Source: Escherichia phage SSL-2009a. From it: a stretch of DNA of 44,899 bases. The notes under the pieces are model-generated. The model was given only the letters and a program-made list of their open reading frames with translations, was not told the origin of the DNA and ran no database searches. The stretch lies in the sequence record NC_012223.2; one strand, given 5' to 3'. Positions 22,313 to 33,861 of this stretch are shown here, piece by piece. The position numbers were made by a program, and so were the translations under genes. Position 1 is the stretch's first letter. Every line of letters begins with the position of its first letter.

Positions 22313-22345
22313 GTATTACACCGCTCGACCAGGATTGCAACCAAT
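22313..22345 (-). promoter_or_regulatory. candidate sigma70-type promoter for the lipoprotein gene (extended -35 ATTGGTTGCAAT, -10 TAATAC)
   Basis: On the minus strand: ATTGG-TTGCAA, 16 nt spacer, TAATAC; TTGCAA at 22335-22340, -10 at 22313-22318. Confidence 0.45.
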
Positions 22346-22361
22346 TTATGAGGATTCAGCT

Positions 22362-23978
22362 ATGGCAGCGGGTACACTATCCGTAACGAATAACAGCAAG
22401 GCGGTTGTCGGGGTAGGCACGACGTTTACCGCGTTTAAAGCTGGCGACTTCTTAACGCTGGTGGTAGGACAAGTCCCCTACACCGTGGCAATCGCGTCCA
22501 TTGAAAGCGCAACCGCGCTCACGCTGGTGTTACCGTTCGACGGACCCACGGCCACCGGCCTTGCCTGGGATGGCGTTGCGCGCGATACCATGTCACTGGC
22601 GACGATGGGCGTAACAGTCCAGGCACAGAAAGCATTGCGCTTGATGATTGCGGATGAAAACAACTGGCGTGCAATCTTCGGCGACGCTGAAGAGATCACC
22701 GTTACGCTGCCCAACGGGCAAGTTATGCAGGGTATGTCATGGGGCTACCTGTCGCAATTGATGAAGCAGATCGACCCCGTTGAAATGCGCAACCTACAAC
22801 AACAAGCCGCCGCGTCTGAAGCAGCAGCGCAAGGATTTCGCAATGAGGCCGAAGGCTTCAAGAACGATGCCAATACCATCAAGACGCAGACCAACCAAAT
22901 CAAGGCCGATACGCAGGCGGTCCACGACGCCACCAACACCATCAAGACGCAGACGAATCAGATTAAGGCCGATACGCAAGCCATCAAGGACCAGACGAAC
23001 CAGATCAAGACGGATACCGGCATTATTCGGGACCAAGCCAATACGGCGAAGACTGACGCGCAAGCCGCCAGAGATGCCGCGAAAGGGTATCGGGATGAAG
23101 CCGAAGACTTCAAAAACGCGGTCAACCCTACGCAATTCATGAAGACGTCTCAGAACCTGGCAGACGTAGCAAATCAATCAGCGGCACGCTCTAATCTTGG
23201 TCTTGGGTCGGTAGCTACGGAGAACACCGTTCCGATCGAGAAAGGAGGAACCGCCGCGACAACGGCAGCGGCGGCACGCTCTAATTTCGGGTTGGGCGAA
23301 AACAATAACGTAAAACTTGGTACGTTGCGCCTAAACGGTGGTGAATCGCTAGTCTTCAATGATGTCGAAAGAAACGGCTTAGCACTATCAAACGTCTCAT
23401 ATGGGATAGATAGTTGGGTAGGCTTCACCATGCACAAATGGTACGCCGACTGGACCCGCGCAGGAATTGTGCGTGCGGGGGACACCCACCTGTCAGACTA
23501 CCGCGTCCACGTGTGGAAAGATGGTATGACTGAATCGCTATTCCGCTTCCTACCGGACGGCAGGCTTATTAGTGGTAACAGCGGCAACCCGTCGGTTAAC
23601 GAGTTCCAGAAAGCGGCGCTATCGGACCGCGACCTTAAAAAAGAAATCAAATACACGGACGGCGAGGAAAGCTACAACCGCGTTCGCCAGTGGCTTCCGG
23701 CGATGTTCAAGTATAAGGAGTCGGACGTACAGCGATACGGCCTTATCGCGCAGGATCTGGCAAGGATTGACCCGGAATACGTGCATTTGCTGCCGGGTTA
23801 CGCCATTTATGAGGACGTCAAGGGGGTCGACGAGGAAGGGAATGAGGTTGTAGTCGACCGCAAGGAGATCGGGTATACCGACGATGTGCTGTCTTTGGAT
23901 AGTAACGTGCTGTTGATGGACCTGTGTGCCGCCTTCGTCCACCTGTTGCATAAAGTGGAGAAGCTGGAAGGTAAATAA
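22362..23978 (+). CDS. tail fiber protein with internal 21-residue repeats and C-terminal chaperone-like domain
   Basis: 538 aa from ATG 22362 (SD GAGGA); tandem TIKTQTNQIKADTQA repeats; C-terminal region (DRDLKKEIKYTDGEESY...GLIAQDLARIDPEYV) resembles the intramolecular chaperone of S74-type fibers (by recollection). Confidence 0.7.
   Translation: MAAGTLSVTNNSKAVVGVGTTFTAFKAGDFLTLVVGQVPYTVAIASIESATALTLVLPFDGPTATGLAWDGVARDTMSLATMGVTVQAQKALRLMIADENNWRAIFGDAEEITVTLPNGQVMQGMSWGYLSQLMKQIDPVEMRNLQQQAAASEAAAQGFRNEAEGFKNDANTIKTQTNQIKADTQAVHDATNTIKTQTNQIKADTQAIKDQTNQIKTDTGIIRDQANTAKTDAQAARDAAKGYRDEAEDFKNAVNPTQFMKTSQNLADVANQSAARSNLGLGSVATENTVPIEKGGTAATTAAAARSNFGLGENNNVKLGTLRLNGGESLVFNDVERNGLALSNVSYGIDSWVGFTMHKWYADWTRAGIVRAGDTHLSDYRVHVWKDGMTESLFRFLPDGRLISGNSGNPSVNEFQKAALSDRDLKKEIKYTDGEESYNRVRQWLPAMFKYKESDVQRYGLIAQDLARIDPEYVHLLPGYAIYEDVKGVDEEGNEVVVDRKEIGYTDDVLSLDSNVLLMDLCAAFVHLLHKVEKLEGK
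22836..23120 (+). repeat. tandem 63-bp coding repeats within the tail fiber gene
   Basis: accatcaagacgcagac...aaggccgatacgca repeated at 22875 and 22938 with a third degenerate copy; flanked by repeated FKN(D/A) segments. Confidence 0.6.
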
Positions 23979-23984
23979 GGAGAA

Positions 23985-24008
23985 GGGGCCGTGCGGCCCC
24001 TTTTTTAG
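23985..24008 (+). terminator. rho-independent terminator after tail fiber gene
   Basis: GGGGCC-gtgc-GGCCCC followed by TTTTTT; marks the convergent junction with the minus-strand operon. Confidence 0.7.
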
Positions 24009-24580
24009 TTTGAGTTTTCCCAGTCCATTTTGCGCCGCACCAGCGGGCTTTCGTAGTATTCTTTACCGTCCACTTCCACTAAAGGCCAATCGTTAACAAT
24101 CACGTATGGCTCCGCGACATCTTCAATCACGCCGCGCGCGCTATGTTGTCCGAACGATACGCCCACCAGGATAACACCGGCAACGCGACGGGTAAGGTAT
24201 TCGCGAGCGCAACGTGCCTCAACCAGTCCGCGACGGATGCCGCTGGTAGCTTTGACTTCGTAGGTCCAGACGGCATCAATCATATGTTCGCGGAAGTCGG
24301 GACCGGATTTTACCTTGCGCTTGCCAACCATGATAATATCGCCGCGGTCGATAGTGTTAGCGCTAAACAGGCCGGTACGCATTAGCAAACCTTGCGGGAT
24401 ACAGCTACGCCCGCCCGCCTGCCCTTCGAGGTACATGCCTGCAAACATTTCGCCCAGCACACCGACGAGTCTGCTTTGCTTGCACGCGTCAGACTTGTAT
24501 CGCCACTGTTCAAACTCGATGCTTGCAATCATCGCCGCCAGGTGGAATTGTTTACCGGTTATTTCATATTCGCCGTACAT
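24005..24580 (-). CDS. hypothetical protein, possible PD-(D/E)xK-type nuclease
   Basis: 191 aa, SD GAGGGA; D...EVK arrangement (GDIIMVG ... TYEVKA) weakly suggestive of a restriction-endonuclease-like fold; last gene of the leftward operon. Confidence 0.45.
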   Translation of the reverse strand: MYGEYEITGKQFHLAAMIASIEFEQWRYKSDACKQSRLVGVLGEMFAGMYLEGQAGGRSCIPQGLLMRTGLFSANTIDRGDIIMVGKRKVKSGPDFREHMIDAVWTYEVKATSGIRRGLVEARCAREYLTRRVAGVILVGVSFGQHSARGVIEDVAEPYVIVNDWPLVEVDGKEYYESPLVRRKMDWENSN

Positions 24581-24621
24581 TGTGAATCCCTCATTGATGC
24601 GGGCCGAAGCCCGCGATTAAA

Positions 24622-25173
24622 TTATTTAAGTGCGCCAGTCACCAGTGTTTTTTCCATGTTACGGAAATCTTCCTGCGTCATGCAGATTTTCGATCCGTCT
24701 TCGCCGGTGAGCACGACCATAGGCTGGACGTCCTGGGCTACAACTCCAAAATTGGCGGCTGTAACCGTTTTACCGGGGGTAAATGCGCCGCCTGTTTTGA
24801 CGGGCCAACCTTTGAGGCTGTCGAATTGTGCTGCCGTTGTATCGATCTGAATCTCGTCATGTACGGTCATGTAAGACTCGCCCAGCAGGGCGGCATACGC
24901 CACCAGATCCACGATGTTATCTTCCTGGTGCTTACGGTGCTGGCGCACCAGCTTCAGGCAGATCAGGAAGGTCCAGGCTTCTTGCTCTGTAAGGTCGCGA
25001 CCGGTAAGCGCGTTAAACACGGCTGCGATTTGTTTAGCGCTGCGTTCTTCTTTCGCGTTGTCATAGCCGTTTTCTTTCCCGCGCTGTTCCATAGTGGTGG
25101 CGGCGTTTTTGCAGTATTCGTATGCTTTCACAGTATTACCCTTTTTATTGAGGGGCTGTATTGCCCCCGACAC
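24622..25173 (-). CDS. hypothetical protein (start uncertain: GTG 25173 or ATG 25092)
   Basis: 183 aa ORF; upstream palindrome and TATAGT lie immediately 5' of the GTG; no motif recognised. Confidence 0.45.
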   Translation of the reverse strand: MSGAIQPLNKKGNTVKAYEYCKNAATTMEQRGKENGYDNAKEERSAKQIAAVFNALTGRDLTEQEAWTFLICLKLVRQHRKHQEDNIVDLVAYAALLGESYMTVHDEIQIDTTAAQFDSLKGWPVKTGGAFTPGKTVTAANFGVVAQDVQPMVVLTGEDGSKICMTQEDFRNMEKTLVTGALK

Positions 25174-25184
25174 GTTTACTATAG

Positions 25185-25206
25185 TGCAACCAACCTATTG
25201 GTTGCA
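25185..25206. promoter_or_regulatory. 22-bp perfect palindrome TGCAACCAA-ccta-TTGGTTGCA (operator-like)
   Basis: Seen directly; overlaps the stop codon of the HAD gene and lies just 5' of gene 24622-25173; TATAGT follows on the minus strand. Confidence 0.55.
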
Positions 25207-25665
25207 AGTGAATTTCGCAACATTTATCGCGTAAATTTTAGGGACCAAATCACCACACGCCCGACGAATTGCCGCGATGTTTTTCTCGCAATCTTCAATG
25301 ATTACCAGTTCCGACACGTCCGCATAGCAGACCATTTTGAACACGGCGCACGCCTTAAACTCTGGCGGCGGGGTGTCGTCCAGCATGTGGCGCATGAATA
25401 ACCGGCCTACCGGGAAGACCTCCAGTTGTTTGGCGGTGGTGTCCCAACATTCTCGCTGCCGGTTGGTCAGATACGCGATCTCGAAACCTTGCTCTTTATA
25501 CATGCGCAGTAGCGGCAGCATATCCATGTTCAGGTCTTCGCGGACGTGCGCCTTGTGCCACTTTGCCCAAAAGGTGGATTTCGTTTTTATCCCCGGCACC
25601 AGGTCGGCGCGCGCATCACTTGAACCGTTAATAACGCCATCCAAATCACAAATCAGTAATTTCAT
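25195..25665 (-). CDS. HAD-superfamily phosphatase (putative nucleotidase)
   Basis: 156 aa; N-terminal LICDLDGV (HAD motif I DxDG); later Lys and acidic motifs compatible with the HAD fold. Confidence 0.6.
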   Translation of the reverse strand: MKLLICDLDGVINGSSDARADLVPGIKTKSTFWAKWHKAHVREDLNMDMLPLLRMYKEQGFEIAYLTNRQRECWDTTAKQLEVFPVGRLFMRHMLDDTPPPEFKACAVFKMVCYADVSELVIIEDCEKNIAAIRRACGDLVPKIYAINVAKFTCNQ

Positions 25666-25886
25666 TTTAAGCTCTCAATAAGGGTGTATCGGGCGCTGCG
25701 CGCGGTGTAAGAGTTGCACACGAAATGACAACGTCGGGTAATGACAAGCCACCCGGTAAGGTCCATACCCAGGAGGTGTTCAGGCCGTGACACGCGACGC
25801 ACACGATCGCGGCGCGGGTCAATGTTATAGTCTTTTTGCATTTGGTCTACGACCGCGTGGTCGCGGTCAACGATTAAGATATTCAT
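25662..25886 (-). CDS. hypothetical small protein
   Basis: 74 aa from ATG 25886 (ORF extends to GTG 25895); overlaps the 3' end of the Dam-like gene by about 20 nt and the HAD start (ATGA). Confidence 0.35.
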   Translation of the reverse strand: MNILIVDRDHAVVDQMQKDYNIDPRRDRVRRVSRPEHLLGMDLTGWLVITRRCHFVCNSYTARSARYTLIESLK

Positions 25887-26352
25887 GTAGCTCACTCTCG
25901 CTCATTATTTCAATCTGTGCGCTGCCGGTGGGCGGCGCTTCGTCAAAGATTATCAATTGCTGGCACTTGTTATTGCTCGGACCGACTTCACCGGTGACTG
26001 CATGTATGAATCGGATCCGCCAGTCCAGAAGAATTATCAGGTTTGCAGTCTTCCGGGCCAGCTTTGCCCACTTCGTCGACGTGTCCTGATTCAGCAGCAT
26101 GACGGTCCGGCGTCCGTGCGCTGCGCACTTAACCCACGGCAGCGGATCGGAATACGGCGGGTTGCACCACTTCCACCCTTTCAACTCTGACCAGTCCGCA
26201 TCGAGCGCGCTGTGCTCTGCCGTGAAGTAACGCGGTAGCAGGTGGTTGGCATCGCTCGCCGCCATGTCATAACGGAATCGGTACTTCCGACGAAGCGGTT
26301 TAAATAAAGCTGGCGGAGTGCGCCAGCCATCTTTTTGCTCACTCTTCTGCAT
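25867..26352 (-). CDS. DNA N6-adenine methyltransferase (phage Dam-like)
   Basis: 161 aa; N-terminal DGWRTPP and catalytic NPPY motif (WCNPPYSD). Confidence 0.75.
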   Translation of the reverse strand: MQKSEQKDGWRTPPALFKPLRRKYRFRYDMAASDANHLLPRYFTAEHSALDADWSELKGWKWCNPPYSDPLPWVKCAAHGRRTVMLLNQDTSTKWAKLARKTANLIILLDWRIRFIHAVTGEVGPSNNKCQQLIIFDEAPPTGSAQIEIMSESELHEYLNR

Positions 26353-26797
26353 GGTCTGGATCTATCGCGTACAGGGCAATTTTCTTATTACTGTTTAGAA
26401 CGCGTTGCACGCGCTTTGATTCCTCGGCGCCGAGCGGTCGGCAGTCGGAGTAGTAAGACCCGTTCCCCCGCCACGCAACCAGCACCAGGTCTTTCCGGTC
26501 AATCTTAGACTGGCGGCCCTTCGGACGCACGTACTCCTCGGCCCGTTTGCAATGCTCACGCAGCCCGTCGGCAGTGATGCGGTTTAGTGCAACGCTGGTG
26601 GTGTATCCGGTGCGCTGCATAATCCCCATCAATTCGAATAGCAGTTCGAAACGCTCCTCTAGCTCCTGGCGCACTTTCTTCTCCCCTTCATATAGCGCCT
26701 GGTTGGTGTCCGCCAACGCGTTCGCACGTTCGGCCTGTTCTCGAGCTTCGAGGCATTGCGCTGCCCAGTAATTTTTCTCTTCTTGTAAAATTTTCAT
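26339..26797 (-). CDS. hypothetical protein with N-terminal coiled coil
   Basis: 152 aa, SD GGAG 9 nt upstream; overlaps Dam start; no catalytic motif recognised. Confidence 0.5.
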   Translation of the reverse strand: MKILQEEKNYWAAQCLEAREQAERANALADTNQALYEGEKKVRQELEERFELLFELMGIMQRTGYTTSVALNRITADGLREHCKRAEEYVRPKGRQSKIDRKDLVLVAWRGNGSYYSDCRPLGAEESKRVQRVLNSNKKIALYAIDPDHAEE

Positions 26798-27040
26798 TTA
26801 TTTAATCTCCGTTGTGCGGATTTCATTGCGTGGAATAAGTTTGCCGCCAATCTCCACCCAGCAGACACCGTAGCGCCATTGGGTATTACGTCCCGTTTGC
26901 TCGGCGTACACGGTCTTGCATTCGTAGCGTTCCGTGTAGTAAATAGCCGTCGAAGGTATGCCAATACAACCGGCAATCATGAGGGTGAGTAGCACCCAAA
27001 ATCGAAGGTCGCCGTCGTAGTCGAAAAATAATGATTTCAT
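26798..27040 (-). CDS. small membrane protein
   Basis: 80 aa, SD GGAGA; one predicted TM helix (FWVLLTLMIAGCIGIPSTAIYY). Confidence 0.45.
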   Translation of the reverse strand: MKSLFFDYDGDLRFWVLLTLMIAGCIGIPSTAIYYTERYECKTVYAEQTGRNTQWRYGVCWVEIGGKLIPRNEIRTTEIK

Positions 27041-27059
27041 CTCACTGTCTCCGGGTATT

Positions 27060-27085
27060 AAAAAGGGCGTCCAAACCGGACACCC
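27060..27085 (-). terminator. intrinsic terminator hairpin on minus strand (between HNH-like gene and membrane protein gene)
   Basis: Minus-strand RNA GGGUGUCC-gguuu-GGACGCCC followed by UUUUU; located immediately downstream of a candidate promoter -10. Confidence 0.45.
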
Positions 27086-27087
27086 TC

Positions 27088-27121
27088 AATATAATGCAAC
27101 CAATATGATTATGCAACCAAT
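27088..27121 (-). promoter_or_regulatory. candidate promoter with two direct ATTGGTTGCAT sites (-35 TTGCAT, 17 nt, -10 TATATT)
   Basis: atgcaaccaat at 27094-27104 and 27111-27121 (+ strand); on the minus strand the first copy supplies TTGCAT, the second fills the spacer, TATATT at 27093-27088. Confidence 0.5.
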
Positions 27122-27444
27122 TTACGCATAAAAGTTAGGGTCGCGCGCAACGTCCACCAAATAGAGATTGCTGATCCGGTTGCCGTAATGGCCTGGCGTG
27201 CGCTGACGGCACACAACGGCAAAGCTGGGGGGATTGTATTGCCAGTCTCAATAATCCACGCCACGCGTGCGCCAGACAGCGTCTTGCCGTTGCATTCGAT
27301 ACGAGTACCGCCATCGGCAGTATTGAGGTTGCCAATCTTGCAGCCGGTGGACTTTAGGCGGATAACGCCTGTTTTGCTGTCGTAGGAAAAAAGCTGATTG
27401 GTCATTGCCACTGAAAAGTCGATGGCGTCGAATGCAGTATTCAT
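27109..27444 (-). CDS. HNH/AP2-like homing-endonuclease-related protein (putative)
   Basis: 111 aa, SD GAGGA; FSYDSKTGVIRLK...IECNGKTLSGARVAW resembles the N-terminal module of free-standing phage HNH endonucleases, but no clear HNH His was identified. Confidence 0.4.
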   Translation of the reverse strand: MNTAFDAIDFSVAMTNQLFSYDSKTGVIRLKSTGCKIGNLNTADGGTRIECNGKTLSGARVAWIIETGNTIPPALPLCAVSARQAITATGSAISIWWTLRATLTFMRKLVA

Positions 27445-28136
27445 TTTAAATTTTCCTCGTTAACCGCTATCGCGAAGCCGCGCGGGGTGAGCGACCTGAT
27501 TAATTTGGTGCGGGCAGATTTGCCTCCGAGGCGACTATACTGCTTCGAGTACCCTTTTTCAACGAATACCGGCTTTTTCTCTGGTATACGGAAGCCGTTG
27601 CCGGTCCATAAGCAGGTCAGCTTCGGATATGAATCGCGGGCGTTGATGTATTCCGGGAAGAGCGGGTGCACGTCATCCTCCGGCAAATAGCCGCCATACT
27701 CCCACGGGTCAAACGAGTGGTCCGGCTTACGCCATTGAGTGGAGAGCACGCTGCGCGGATTCTCAATCATATATGGCACTTCAAAGAAATCACCCAGGTA
27801 AGCGGCGATCTTCGCGGTGCGCACCGCCTTAAGCTGGAAGGCAGGGTCGCGGGCGCGTTTGCGCGGGAAAGCTGGCGCACCGCTCACCGCCAGATCCGTA
27901 CACGGCGGGAATGCGTATATGATATCCGGCGCGCCGAAATCACCATTCATCGCGCGGTCAACGAAGTCCAGGTCGATAAACTCATTACGATATCGAATGC
28001 CGCAACCATAGATCCGGTAATCAAGGTACAACCCGTGATCGGCTTCGGAGTAGTTGAAGCAATAACACTTATGCCCCATCTCGGCAGCACGCTCAATCAT
28101 CAAGCCGCTGCCGTCAAATAATGACCATATAATCAT
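27441..28136 (-). CDS. C5-cytosine DNA methyltransferase-like protein (short, no obvious target-recognition domain)
   Basis: 231 aa; motif I-like LFDGSG, PC motif AFPPCTDLAVSG, ENV-like MIENP; shorter than typical Dcm-class enzymes. Confidence 0.55.
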   Translation of the reverse strand: MIIWSLFDGSGLMIERAAEMGHKCYCFNYSEADHGLYLDYRIYGCGIRYRNEFIDLDFVDRAMNGDFGAPDIIYAFPPCTDLAVSGAPAFPRKRARDPAFQLKAVRTAKIAAYLGDFFEVPYMIENPRSVLSTQWRKPDHSFDPWEYGGYLPEDDVHPLFPEYINARDSYPKLTCLWTGNGFRIPEKKPVFVEKGYSKQYSRLGGKSARTKLIRSLTPRGFAIAVNEENLK

Positions 28137-30508: not shown

Positions 30509-32800
30509 TTATTTCCTGTACCTATACATAATGTCGCCTTCCGCGGCAAGCGGGAATCCTTTCGCCCAAACCGGCAGGTCGCACATCAGCGCGCACAACT
30601 CCTCGGTTGTGTAGTCGTCGGTATCCGGCACTTCGGTTATCAGTTCATCGTGTACGGACAGTACGATCTCATACCCCGCAGCTTCAACGCCAGGCATGGA
30701 CCATGCGAGGATATCGCGGCACAGCGCCTGCACGATGTTTTCCGTCAGTTTGCCGCCGTAGGTGTACTGGAATCCCCACTGGCGCGTCGTCTGATTCTCA
30801 CCCTGATATTTAATGCGGGTGCTGGTGCGTTTCTTGCCGGTGTCTTCGTCGATCTCGGTCGTGACAGACAGCGCGATGCCGGGGTAGCTCATGATGCGCC
30901 CCGACGGTAACTCAATTTTCAACCACCACCCCGCGGCGTTCGGGTCGTCGCGTTCCTCGTCGAAGGTTGGGTCATGCTTCGCCTTCGTGCGGACTATCTT
31001 GAGCGCTTTCTTTCCATCCGGGCGAACGTTCGCGCCCGCCCAGTACGCTTTGCCCGGATTGCGGATCGCACAGAGCACCGCGTCTTCCAGTTCGGCCCAA
31101 AATGCTACCGTCTTCGGGTGCGACTCACGCCACATACGTTTGATTGCATCACACGTCAGCCATACGTTTTTCGGCAGTATGTAAGTCGGGCGCTCGTCCT
31201 TCTTGCCCGGCTTCGGCGGGCGCTTCGCTTCGTTAATGCGGGCGTATTCATAACCCCGTTTCGCCGCCGCCCATATGTGATCGGGGAATGTGCCCTTCAT
31301 CACTTCAGCCATCGCGTAAAGGTCGAGGCCCAGGTTTTTAGCGAACTGCAAGAACGCCGCCACGCCGCCACCATAGCCCAGGCCCAATTCGCACGCCTTA
31401 CCGATCTGGCGTAAGTCTTTGCGGTTGGCTTTAATGTATTCTGGGTCAAGGCCGAACATCTTACCGGCAGTTTCACAATAAATGTCGCGACCGGCCTTAA
31501 ACACCATTAGCGCTGTTTTCTCGCCAGCGATCCAGGCAAGTCCACGCCCTTCCACGTTGGAGTAGTCCGCTACGACAAACTTCTTACCCTTCGCCGGAAT
31601 AATGCACCCACGAACAGTCGAGGCCGTTAGCTTCGATATGTCATACGCCCAGTGCGCTGTCCCACGTAACAGGGAGTTGATGCCGTTGGTGAGCATGTGC
31701 GACCGCACCCAAAACGCGACGTCGCTCTCGCCCTCACGGCGCTTAATCTTCCCTTCGTGGTCGTCGCTATACTCGCCTCGCGCCAGGTTTTGCGGCTGGA
31801 AGCCTTTACCGGCCCAGCGTAGCGTGCGCTTTGCCCCACCATACTGAAGACAACCACGGCGGCGACCATCGGCGGACAGACCATTTACAAGCGGATTGTA
31901 CTTAGTCGATGCCGTTGATGACGCACCGAGGCGCATTTCGATAAGCACTTTGCCTTCGTCGGGGAAGTCTGGGTCTTCCAGCAGGTCGTTAAGCGTGGAT
32001 TTCTGCGCGTTGTGAATTGTGAACGCAGGCGCGAGGTCGCGCAGCGCTGGCAAGAAGTCATTGCCAGTCAGCTTACCGCCGAAGCGCTCCCAGGCTTCTT
32101 CCTTCAATTCTTCCTTATGCGCCTGTACCGCTTTGATCGCAGCGCGCGCCAGGTCAACGTCCACATAGAAGCCGCGGTCATTGATCAACTGGTCAATAAG
32201 CAGGATTTCGTCTTCCTTCGGCGTGTTACCCCAGTCCGGTATGCGCCAATAGACTTCCCTCATCGCTATAATATCCAGCGCGGCATAGCGCAGGAATTTA
32301 GCCCATTCTTCAGGGTGAGTCTCGCGAGTGTAGCGGCGGATTTTGTAAGTCTTAGGGGTGGGCTTACAGAATCGTTTAATCAGCGCCTTGCCTGCCTTAT
32401 CCTTCGCGTGCTCTGCGTCAACGCCCAGCACCTGGCATTGCATATCGAGGCTACCGGGCAGCGCGTGGCGAAAGGCCATAATCATGGTATCTTCGATCTG
32501 ACACACTGGCAGGTCAATGCCCCACTTCTCGCGAATAACCAGGCGGTCAAACAGGAGGCCGTTAGCCATCACTATTTTTGCTTTCTTGCGGGATACCCGG
32601 CGGAGCGCCTTGCGCAGTTCACGCGGCATTGTGGGGGACTCGGTGCAATCCCACGTTTGCACGCGGCCTTCGTCGATGGCGTATGTGCAAATCATAATCT
32701 CAGTAGTTGGGTGTTCCGCGTAGGCGTATGCGCCCACTTTCTTCAGATCCACCCCGCTAAATGTCTCGGTATCGAGAAACAGGCGTTCAAAGTCTTTCAT
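30509..32800 (-). CDS. DNA polymerase I-type (family A) with 3'-5' exonuclease domain
   Basis: 763 aa; N-terminal exo motif LFLDTETFSG; polymerase motif A VADYSNVEGRGLAW, motif B RQIGKACELGLGYGGG, motif C VHDELI. Confidence 0.9.
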   Translation of the reverse strand: MKDFERLFLDTETFSGVDLKKVGAYAYAEHPTTEIMICTYAIDEGRVQTWDCTESPTMPRELRKALRRVSRKKAKIVMANGLLFDRLVIREKWGIDLPVCQIEDTMIMAFRHALPGSLDMQCQVLGVDAEHAKDKAGKALIKRFCKPTPKTYKIRRYTRETHPEEWAKFLRYAALDIIAMREVYWRIPDWGNTPKEDEILLIDQLINDRGFYVDVDLARAAIKAVQAHKEELKEEAWERFGGKLTGNDFLPALRDLAPAFTIHNAQKSTLNDLLEDPDFPDEGKVLIEMRLGASSTASTKYNPLVNGLSADGRRRGCLQYGGAKRTLRWAGKGFQPQNLARGEYSDDHEGKIKRREGESDVAFWVRSHMLTNGINSLLRGTAHWAYDISKLTASTVRGCIIPAKGKKFVVADYSNVEGRGLAWIAGEKTALMVFKAGRDIYCETAGKMFGLDPEYIKANRKDLRQIGKACELGLGYGGGVAAFLQFAKNLGLDLYAMAEVMKGTFPDHIWAAAKRGYEYARINEAKRPPKPGKKDERPTYILPKNVWLTCDAIKRMWRESHPKTVAFWAELEDAVLCAIRNPGKAYWAGANVRPDGKKALKIVRTKAKHDPTFDEERDDPNAAGWWLKIELPSGRIMSYPGIALSVTTEIDEDTGKKRTSTRIKYQGENQTTRQWGFQYTYGGKLTENIVQALCRDILAWSMPGVEAAGYEIVLSVHDELITEVPDTDDYTTEELCALMCDLPVWAKGFPLAAEGDIMYRYRK

Positions 32801-33025: not shown

Positions 33026-33805
33026 TTAACGGCGGCGACGTTTACGTGGCGCTTCGTCTTCGTCGTCGTCCTCATCTTCGTCATCGCGTGGCTTACGACG
33101 TTTACGAGGTTTTTCATCTTCGTCGTCTTCGTCATCGCGGCGCTTGGACTTTTTGGACTTGCGCGGCTTGTCGTCTTCGTCATCGTCATCACGACGTTTT
33201 GACTTTTTGGACTTGCGCGGGCTTTCATCTTCGTCATCGTTGTCCAGGTCTTCGTCTGAGCACGAAGATCCGCCACCGCCGAAGGCTTCGCCGTCATCAC
33301 GGAAGCGCAGACCCAAAAGACCAGCACCGAGTCCCTTGCCGTTGGTATTGTTCCACGCCCAGATATCGAGGGACACGTTGCAATAACAACCGGAGTAGAT
33401 CTCCTGGCCTTCGATCTCGTCGCCTTCTACGGTCAGACCTTGTTCAGTCTGCTTCTCGCCGAGTGACGTTTGAATGATCGGCTGCTTGAACGATTTGGCG
33501 TTGATGTACAACATGCCTTCGAATTCTTCGGTTACTTCGTCGCGCTCGTCACCGTCGCGAACTGCGCATTCCTTAGAATCCTGGGCGTAGTGGCGGTCCA
33601 TCCACTTATCGGCATTCTTCTCGGATTTCAGCTTGTCGGTGAGCACTGCGCGCGCTGCCGCTTCCACTTTGTCCACCTGCGGATCTTCTTTATCCAGAAG
33701 AATCACGGCACGGTATGCCGGTTTTTGTCCATCCTGTTTAGGGGTATCACGTTCCCAAATTTTCAGGAAACATACGCGCACTTTTTTCAGGTTGACTTTA
33801 GCCAT
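33026..33805 (-). CDS. single-stranded DNA-binding protein candidate (T7 gp2.5-like) with repetitive mixed-charge C-terminal tail
   Basis: 259 aa from ATG 33805 (SD AGGAA); N-terminus MAKVNLKKVRVCF resembles gp2.5-like SSBs (by recollection); C-terminal 70 residues are tandem D/E-rich and KPRKSKKSKRR-type repeats. Confidence 0.5.
   Translation of the reverse strand: MAKVNLKKVRVCFLKIWERDTPKQDGQKPAYRAVILLDKEDPQVDKVEAAARAVLTDKLKSEKNADKWMDRHYAQDSKECAVRDGDERDEVTEEFEGMLYINAKSFKQPIIQTSLGEKQTEQGLTVEGDEIEGQEIYSGCYCNVSLDIWAWNNTNGKGLGAGLLGLRFRDDGEAFGGGGSSCSDEDLDNDDEDESPRKSKKSKRRDDDDEDDKPRKSKKSKRRDDEDDEDEKPRKRRKPRDDEDEDDDEDEAPRKRRRR
33030..33245 (-). repeat. tandem coding repeats (about 55-bp period) in the SSB C-terminal tail
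   Basis: ttggactttttggacttgcgcgg repeated at 33144-33166 and 33198-33220 with flanking gtc/ttc triplet runs. Confidence 0.55.
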
Positions 33806-33861
33806 TTTCCAATTCCTCATTTTCACATGTATCGGGGTTATTGTGAGCCACCCCGTTCGGC

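Follow-up and report, generated by a model that had tools for sequence, protein, structure and literature searches.

Nucleases of the PD-(D/E)xK superfamily share a canonical layout, with an acidic residue in the core helix, an aspartate located at the N-terminus of beta-strand 2 and a (D/E)xK motif on beta-strand 3, and some of them, such as NhoI and Eco15I, carry QxK in place of ExK (PMC11347163). Here, we analyzed a 191-amino-acid protein encoded on the minus strand at positions 24005-24580 of Escherichia phage SSL-2009a (NC_012223.2), which we consider likely to be a small, single-domain, metal-dependent nuclease of this fold, with both metal dependence and catalysis predicted from structural models and residue conservation. 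The window, meaning the whole stretch of 44,899 nucleotides, is the complete genome of a Dhillonvirus-type E. coli siphophage, whose nearest relatives (JL1, UAE_MI-01, HK578 and B2) are about 90% identical to it in nucleotide sequence over the nuclease region; a 44,899-bp contig in IMG/VR matches it exactly. The protein belongs to a new, previously unnamed family inside a very well-known and common enzyme superfamily, and at least one annotator had already guessed its nature: a single GenBank record (PQ658967, vB_EcoS-UDS3lw) labels the ortholog a restriction endonuclease, while all others listed say "hypothetical".

Predicted fold and active-site residues

The initial annotation had read a possible PD-(D/E)xK nuclease into this protein from a D...E-x-K arrangement, calling that evidence weak. 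The arrangement is present as D81 followed by E108-V-K110, but the bare pattern is no more than chance would supply. Shuffles that preserve composition contain D-x(5,35)-[DE]-x-K in 60% of cases, which makes the caution well placed, and in 2.7% when a hydrophobic strand context is required. The reading itself gains its support from the predicted fold and from the invariance of four residues, E44, D81, E108 and K110.

AlphaFold2 gave a predicted local distance difference test score (pLDDT) of 82.6 and a predicted template modeling score (pTM) of 0.80 with a 7-sequence alignment, and 85.1 and 0.82 with a more diverse 12-sequence alignment (five models, pLDDT 83.6-85.1), the order of elements being identical in both runs. 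The models begin with an N-terminal strand and helix at residues 3-25, a long core helix at 31/34-52/54 and then a short strand at 59-61. A beta-hairpin comes next, which the second model places at 81/82-93 and 96-112 (strand 2 being 81/82-86/93 and strand 3 96/103-112), and after it a helix (122-130) and a strand (135-143/144). The C-terminal extension comprises two hairpins plus two helices and spans residues 135-190. As modeled, the central part is an alpha-beta-beta-beta-alpha-beta core, that of the restriction-endonuclease-like fold, and the structure prediction proposed earlier as a check on the annotation thus came out in its favor in two models. In the accompanying fold comparison, a Foldseek search of the PDB returned no significant match (best E 0.07), although its top matches were HincII, AspBHI and DpnI. 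Against BFVD, Foldseek retrieved uncharacterized phage proteins of like size and overall architecture, the best with template modeling (TM) scores of 0.75-0.81 at 30% identity. The remaining full-length BFVD matches (E <=1e-3) had TMq values of 0.62-0.41, and one weaker match carries the name "Restriction endonuclease".

Conservation within the family picks out the residues that such a fold would need. In a 12-sequence alignment whose members are 27-96% identical to the window protein, invariance is limited to 19 of the 191 positions; once a Pectobacterium phage member at 25% identity is included, 16 columns across five phage lineages remain so: A15, E22, R37, G40, E44, L51, R58, G64, R68, G80, D81, E108, K110, Y128, A148 and W165. 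The invariance of E44 down to 25% identity was judged on 11 sequences. Only 5 of the 34 aspartate, glutamate and lysine residues are invariant in the 12-sequence alignment, and E44, D81, E108 and K110 make up four of them; the chance of four prespecified positions of this kind all being invariant is approximately 1e-4. D102, which lies six residues ahead of the ExK motif, was considered as the catalytic aspartate and rejected, as it is not conserved among distant homologs.

The four residues also fall in the expected elements of the models. The core helix carries E44 (codon 24449-24451, minus strand, as are the codons that follow), which belongs to the invariant G-x-x-x-E of a GVLGEMF segment. 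D81 (24338-24340), part of an invariant G80-D81 pair and the candidate "PD" aspartate, occupies the N-terminal edge of strand 2, and E108-V109-K110 (24251-24259) forms the (D/E)xK motif, in the context YEVKAT, on strand 3. In the second model, D81 appears to sit roughly opposite E108 in the hairpin register. This predicted placement fits the canonical superfamily layout. By the chemistry of the superfamily, from which the proposal is drawn, E44, D81 and E108 would bind Mg2+, and K110 would hold the attacking water in position and activate it, leaving 5'-phosphate and 3'-OH ends.

The protein matches PHROG 10558 ("unknown function") over its full length (E 3.6e-119, residues 1-191 against profile positions 1-191), as do the Klebsiella-phage and KW1E_UTAR representatives tested. 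Beyond this, no Pfam match was found for the protein or any family member, the NCBIfam search was empty, PADLOC gave a noise match only (TmtA, E 0.037), and phmmer and hmmsearch searches of the PDB with three profiles found nothing for the family. In a large protein database, the family amounts to only about a dozen clusters, none with a Pfam domain. The protein also lacks both the WD/AD ... QxK signature of the BisI family (NhoI/Eco15I) and sequence homology to it. The link to known enzymes is therefore one of fold and motif, not of homology demonstrable by sequence, and the fold and active-site assignment adds information to a PHROG without functional annotation.

Distribution and operon position

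The 191-amino-acid open reading frame (ORF) is a real, constrained gene. Its dN/dS is 0.03-0.07 against 13 Dhillonvirus orthologs (88-94% nucleotide identity) and 0.11 at 75% nucleotide identity. It has an ATG start, as annotated, with a Shine-Dalgarno-like GAGGGA read from the sequence 6 nucleotides 5' of it (24587-24592, minus strand). The earlier description of the gene as the final one in the leftward operon, meeting a tail fiber gene at a convergent junction, is correct: its stop codon abuts a terminator-like hairpin at 23979-24006, and on the other side lies a plus-strand gene (22335-23978) with a Peptidase_S74 chaperone domain, labeled tail fiber or tail tip in relatives. This GC-rich hairpin, found by a terminator scan, resembles a bidirectional intrinsic terminator common to both genes, with a 12-bp stem and a T-run on the plus strand and an 8-bp stem on the minus strand.

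A second hairpin, GCGGGC-UUCG-GCCCGC (24599-24614, minus strand, -13.6 kcal/mol), lies between the stop codon of the upstream DUF6378 gene and the nuclease start. Thirteen close Dhillonvirus loci keep it, a single stem mismatch in one of them aside, as do two relatives with 55-57% protein identity (L002 and L003), while the flanks vary; the four non-Dhillonvirus lineages described below do not have it. Lacking a U-tract downstream, it does not qualify as a canonical terminator and may instead be an element of mRNA processing, stability or attenuation that limits or stabilizes expression of the last cistron.

Among annotated phage records, 156 hold the nuclease protein (>=60% identity) and 156 hold the genus-type DNA polymerase (>=90%), so the gene is effectively universal in Dhillonvirus. 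It occupies a fixed syntenic locus in all 156 Dhillonvirus records and is also found in four other lineages. In metagenomic relatives with 55-57% protein identity, the gene order runs SNF2 helicase, Dam, small ORF, HAD phosphatase, DUF6378, nuclease and convergent tail fiber. A tblastn search brought up distant homologs, 25-37% identical, from four more siphophage lineages, represented by Klebsiella phages of about 48 kb, Escherichia phage KW1E_UTAR, Enterobacter phage ATCEA85, and Pectobacterium and Dickeya phages. Some individual homologs are irregular. That of Klebsiella phage vB_KleS-HSE3 (gp005) is apparently frameshifted past about residue 115 and has an unrelated C-terminus, and phage mEp021 (MH706966.1, 54408-54518) shows only a fragment matching residues 155-191, 81% identical, at the extreme end of the record. 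Homolog P0011 is ascribed to "Brucella melitensis" (a 47-kb contig) and probably reflects phage contamination or a mislabeled sequence.

We observed a consistent association between the nuclease and a phage Dam-family N6-adenine DNA methyltransferase (PF05869; in the window at 25867-26352, minus strand, Pfam E 5e-36). In five of the five lineages examined, this gene lies 0.65-1.4 kb upstream of the nuclease homolog in the same operon, separated from it by two or three small unrelated ORFs. Every lineage examined has the nuclease homolog at the end of its replication/modification operon, before the tail-fiber junction or the lysis cassette. DNA methyltransferases are present in all four non-Dhillonvirus lineages, where the HAD and DUF6378 neighbors are absent, and a second, C5-type methyltransferase is found in some lineages only. 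Dam genes of this type occur in at least 1,014 phage records, compared with about 200 for the nuclease. The dependence runs one way: every nuclease lineage has Dam, and most Dam-bearing phages are without the nuclease.

In the sister Jerseyvirus lineage (PolA 63-65% identical), the operon ends right after the helicase, without methyltransferases or nuclease. The distal block 24005-28136 of the window is missing in the Jerseyvirus Salmonella phage vB_SenS_S532 (NC_073188.1:30425-33620); it contains a methyltransferase, an HNH gene, an 80-amino-acid ORF, an anti-Tmn-like gene, Dam, a Ksap1-like ORF, a HAD phosphatase, DUF6378 and the nuclease. This block has the behavior of a lineage-specific add-on for host interaction, placed at the convergent junction.

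Proposed role and alternative explanations

We tentatively suggest that the nuclease acts as a restriction-like DNA endonuclease in DNA conflict, coupled to phage methylation, a role that we infer and regard as possible but doubtful. Expressed as the last cistron of an early/middle DNA-metabolism operon, downstream of the Dam-type and a second methyltransferase, it would cut host or competitor DNA that does not carry the phage methylation pattern, and its production after the methyltransferases would keep the phage DNA safe. Having the methyltransferases first and the nuclease last in the operon suggests such a restriction-like logic, with self DNA protected. Several points weigh against this role and hold our rating of it down: the phage groups are related, so the nuclease-Dam synteny may be inherited; the two genes are not adjacent; and E. 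coli DNA is itself Dam-methylated.

As an alternative, the protein could be a structure-specific or repair nuclease of replication and recombination, such as a junction or flap resolvase like Hjc or D212, acting on branched phage DNA before packaging. We consider this unlikely. The leftward operon already encodes a 92-amino-acid VRR-NUC protein (PF08774; 30038-30316, minus strand), itself of the PD-(D/E)xK superfamily, and a 476-amino-acid Cas4/RecB-like exonuclease (DUF2800/PDDEXK_1, PF10926 and PF12705; 34131-35561, minus strand), whose neighbors are an Enc34-type SSB (33026-33826) and the family A DNA polymerase encoded at 30509-32800. In some relatives an endonuclease VII is present as well. 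With the first two in place, the roles of junction resolution and recombination exonuclease are plausibly filled, and the nuclease is therefore probably not the one that performs them for the phage. Jerseyvirus, moreover, replicates with the same PolA/SSB/helicase set in the absence of this particular nuclease gene. There is also no profile-profile relationship to Hjc, as an hhalign comparison of the family alignment with one made from four PDB Hjc/Hje sequences gave a probability of 0.2% with no motif aligned.

Very unlikely, in our view, is that the protein has the nuclease fold and does not cut DNA in vivo, serving as a DNA- or protein-binding factor (an anti-defense decoy or inhibitor) or as an immune trigger. 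We disfavor this reading because invariance of the four canonical catalytic residues extends to 25% identity, whereas of the 34 aspartate, glutamate and lysine residues 29 vary, a pattern that is hard to explain without catalysis or at least metal binding. Still less probable is a nuclease of this fold that targets RNA, in the manner of the tRNA-splicing endonuclease, Rai1/DXO or influenza PA. EndA-type enzymes work, to our knowledge, without the metal-binding D/ExK set, whereas this set is conserved in the phage protein, and it is the DNA methyltransferases that are always present in the four non-Dhillonvirus lineages, not the HAD neighbor. A free-standing homing endonuclease related to I-Ssp6803I can be practically dismissed on distribution and selection, as the gene is neither mobile nor sporadic, holds the same position in 156 of 156 genus members and four other lineages, is under strong purifying selection and does not lie inside an intron or intein, whereas the operon does contain a genuinely sporadic gene, of HNH type, at another place (27109-27444).

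Returning to the restriction-like endonuclease, a broader and more speculative proposal, which we hold to be rather unlikely, is that lytic siphophages carry their own Dam-coupled module to methylate self and cut non-self, and that this module may feed abortive-infection sensing. If true, its targets would be coinfecting phages or replicating or under-methylated host DNA, and the nuclease might produce DNA damage or fragments of the kind detected by some abortive-infection systems. The trigger of Retron-Eco7 by a Dhillonvirus, phage98, is a possible example; the gene is not named in the available part of the source text (PMC12640716). A SECphi4 escaper screen makes no mention of the nuclease gene, and we found no experimental information on it in papers studying Dhillonvirus genes. 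A passage on HpaII and Dazbog concerns the Bacillus phage SPR and is irrelevant to the nuclease.

The assignment provides a testable function for PHROG 10558, which is "hypothetical" in almost all of the approximately 200 sequenced phages that carry it, and names E44, D81, E108 and K110 as targets for mutation. The family spans widely used model Dhillonviruses, including SECphi4, HK578 and BASEL phages such as Bas16 GeorgBuechner, and the gene sits in a methyltransferase-containing host-interaction block together with a Ksap1-like ORF and probably an anti-defense gene. If the nuclease is coupled to phage methylation, this would be a virulent phage using restriction-modification logic offensively; if it is uncoupled, it would be one more divergent PD-(D/E)xK nuclease and routine.

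Neighboring genes and comparison with known systems

Several neighbors in the distal block have described relatives. Ksap1 is a Dhillonvirus protein that directly activates the Klebsiella immune sensor Avs2 (PMC11564622). An ORF between Dam and the HAD phosphatase (25662-25895, minus strand, PHROG 10685), of 77 amino acids from a GTG or 74 from an internal ATG, matches it by position and size alone. The nuclease itself was considered as Ksap1 and rejected, as Ksap1 has 74 amino acids and is flanked by a methyltransferase and a phosphatase. It was likewise rejected as the anti-Tmn protein of Dhillonvirus SMS22, in which the nuclease ortholog is CDS0030 and anti-Tmn is described as a helical rod. 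That protein, ORF35 of PMC11846954, is probably represented in the window by a 152-amino-acid product with a long helical N-terminus encoded directly upstream of Dam (26339-26797, minus strand), the ortholog of SM_S22 CDS0035; the ORF numbering of the paper may be offset by one. CDS0035 is labeled "DNA ligase" via PHROG 10530, an implausible name for a helical protein of this length.

Other labels in the block look unreliable as well. The DUF6378 protein (24622-25173, minus strand) matches PHROGs named "phosphofructokinase", and the PHROG labels of this protein and of the HAD phosphatase say little about function. A 231-amino-acid protein (27441-28136, minus strand, PHROG 757) is labeled a C5-cytosine or DNA methyltransferase in relatives, and its searches gave no Pfam and no NCBIfam matches.

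GATC is not avoided in the genome, with 171 sites and an observed/expected ratio (O/E) of 0.85, an abundance that speaks neither for nor against cleavage blocked by a cognate methylation. Across the whole window, AAGCTT, CAGCTG, GGGCCC and CCATGG do not occur, GCCGGC and CGGCCG occur once each, GGCGCC occurs 3 times against about 21 expected, and CTAG (O/E 0.33) and GGCC (O/E 0.67) are low. Such strong avoidance of several 6-bp palindromes is what selection by host type II restriction systems usually leaves behind, and these statistics say nothing specific about the nuclease.

We compared the nuclease with solved minimal PD-(D/E)xK endonucleases, namely I-Ssp6803I (2ost), NhoI and Eco15I (8q5n, 8q5m), the catalytic domain of DpnI (4esj), archaeal Hjc (1gef, 2wcw) and SSV1 D212 (2w8m). 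It shows no detectable sequence or profile similarity to any of these and differs from them in features of its own, the N-terminal strand and helix (residues 3-25) and the C-terminal extension (135-190). I-Ssp6803I is intron-encoded and DpnI has an extra winged-helix domain, both unlike the phage protein. Closer at hand, the VRR-NUC and Cas4/RecB-like proteins of the same genome share its superfamily and leftward operon; however, they have no sequence similarity to it, differ in size and position, and are recognizable by Pfam, which the nuclease is not. PHROG 10558 is its own family, from which it does not differ.

The comparison with type II restriction-modification systems cuts both ways. 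The nuclease gene is not next to a methyltransferase gene, with two or three unrelated ORFs between them; it is borne by lytic phages and not by a host; and Dam of this type mostly occurs without a nuclease. As in those systems, however, a protein of predicted PD-(D/E)xK fold is encoded downstream of DNA methyltransferases in the same transcription unit, and its linkage to PF05869, which could be inherited synteny, holds in all five lineages.
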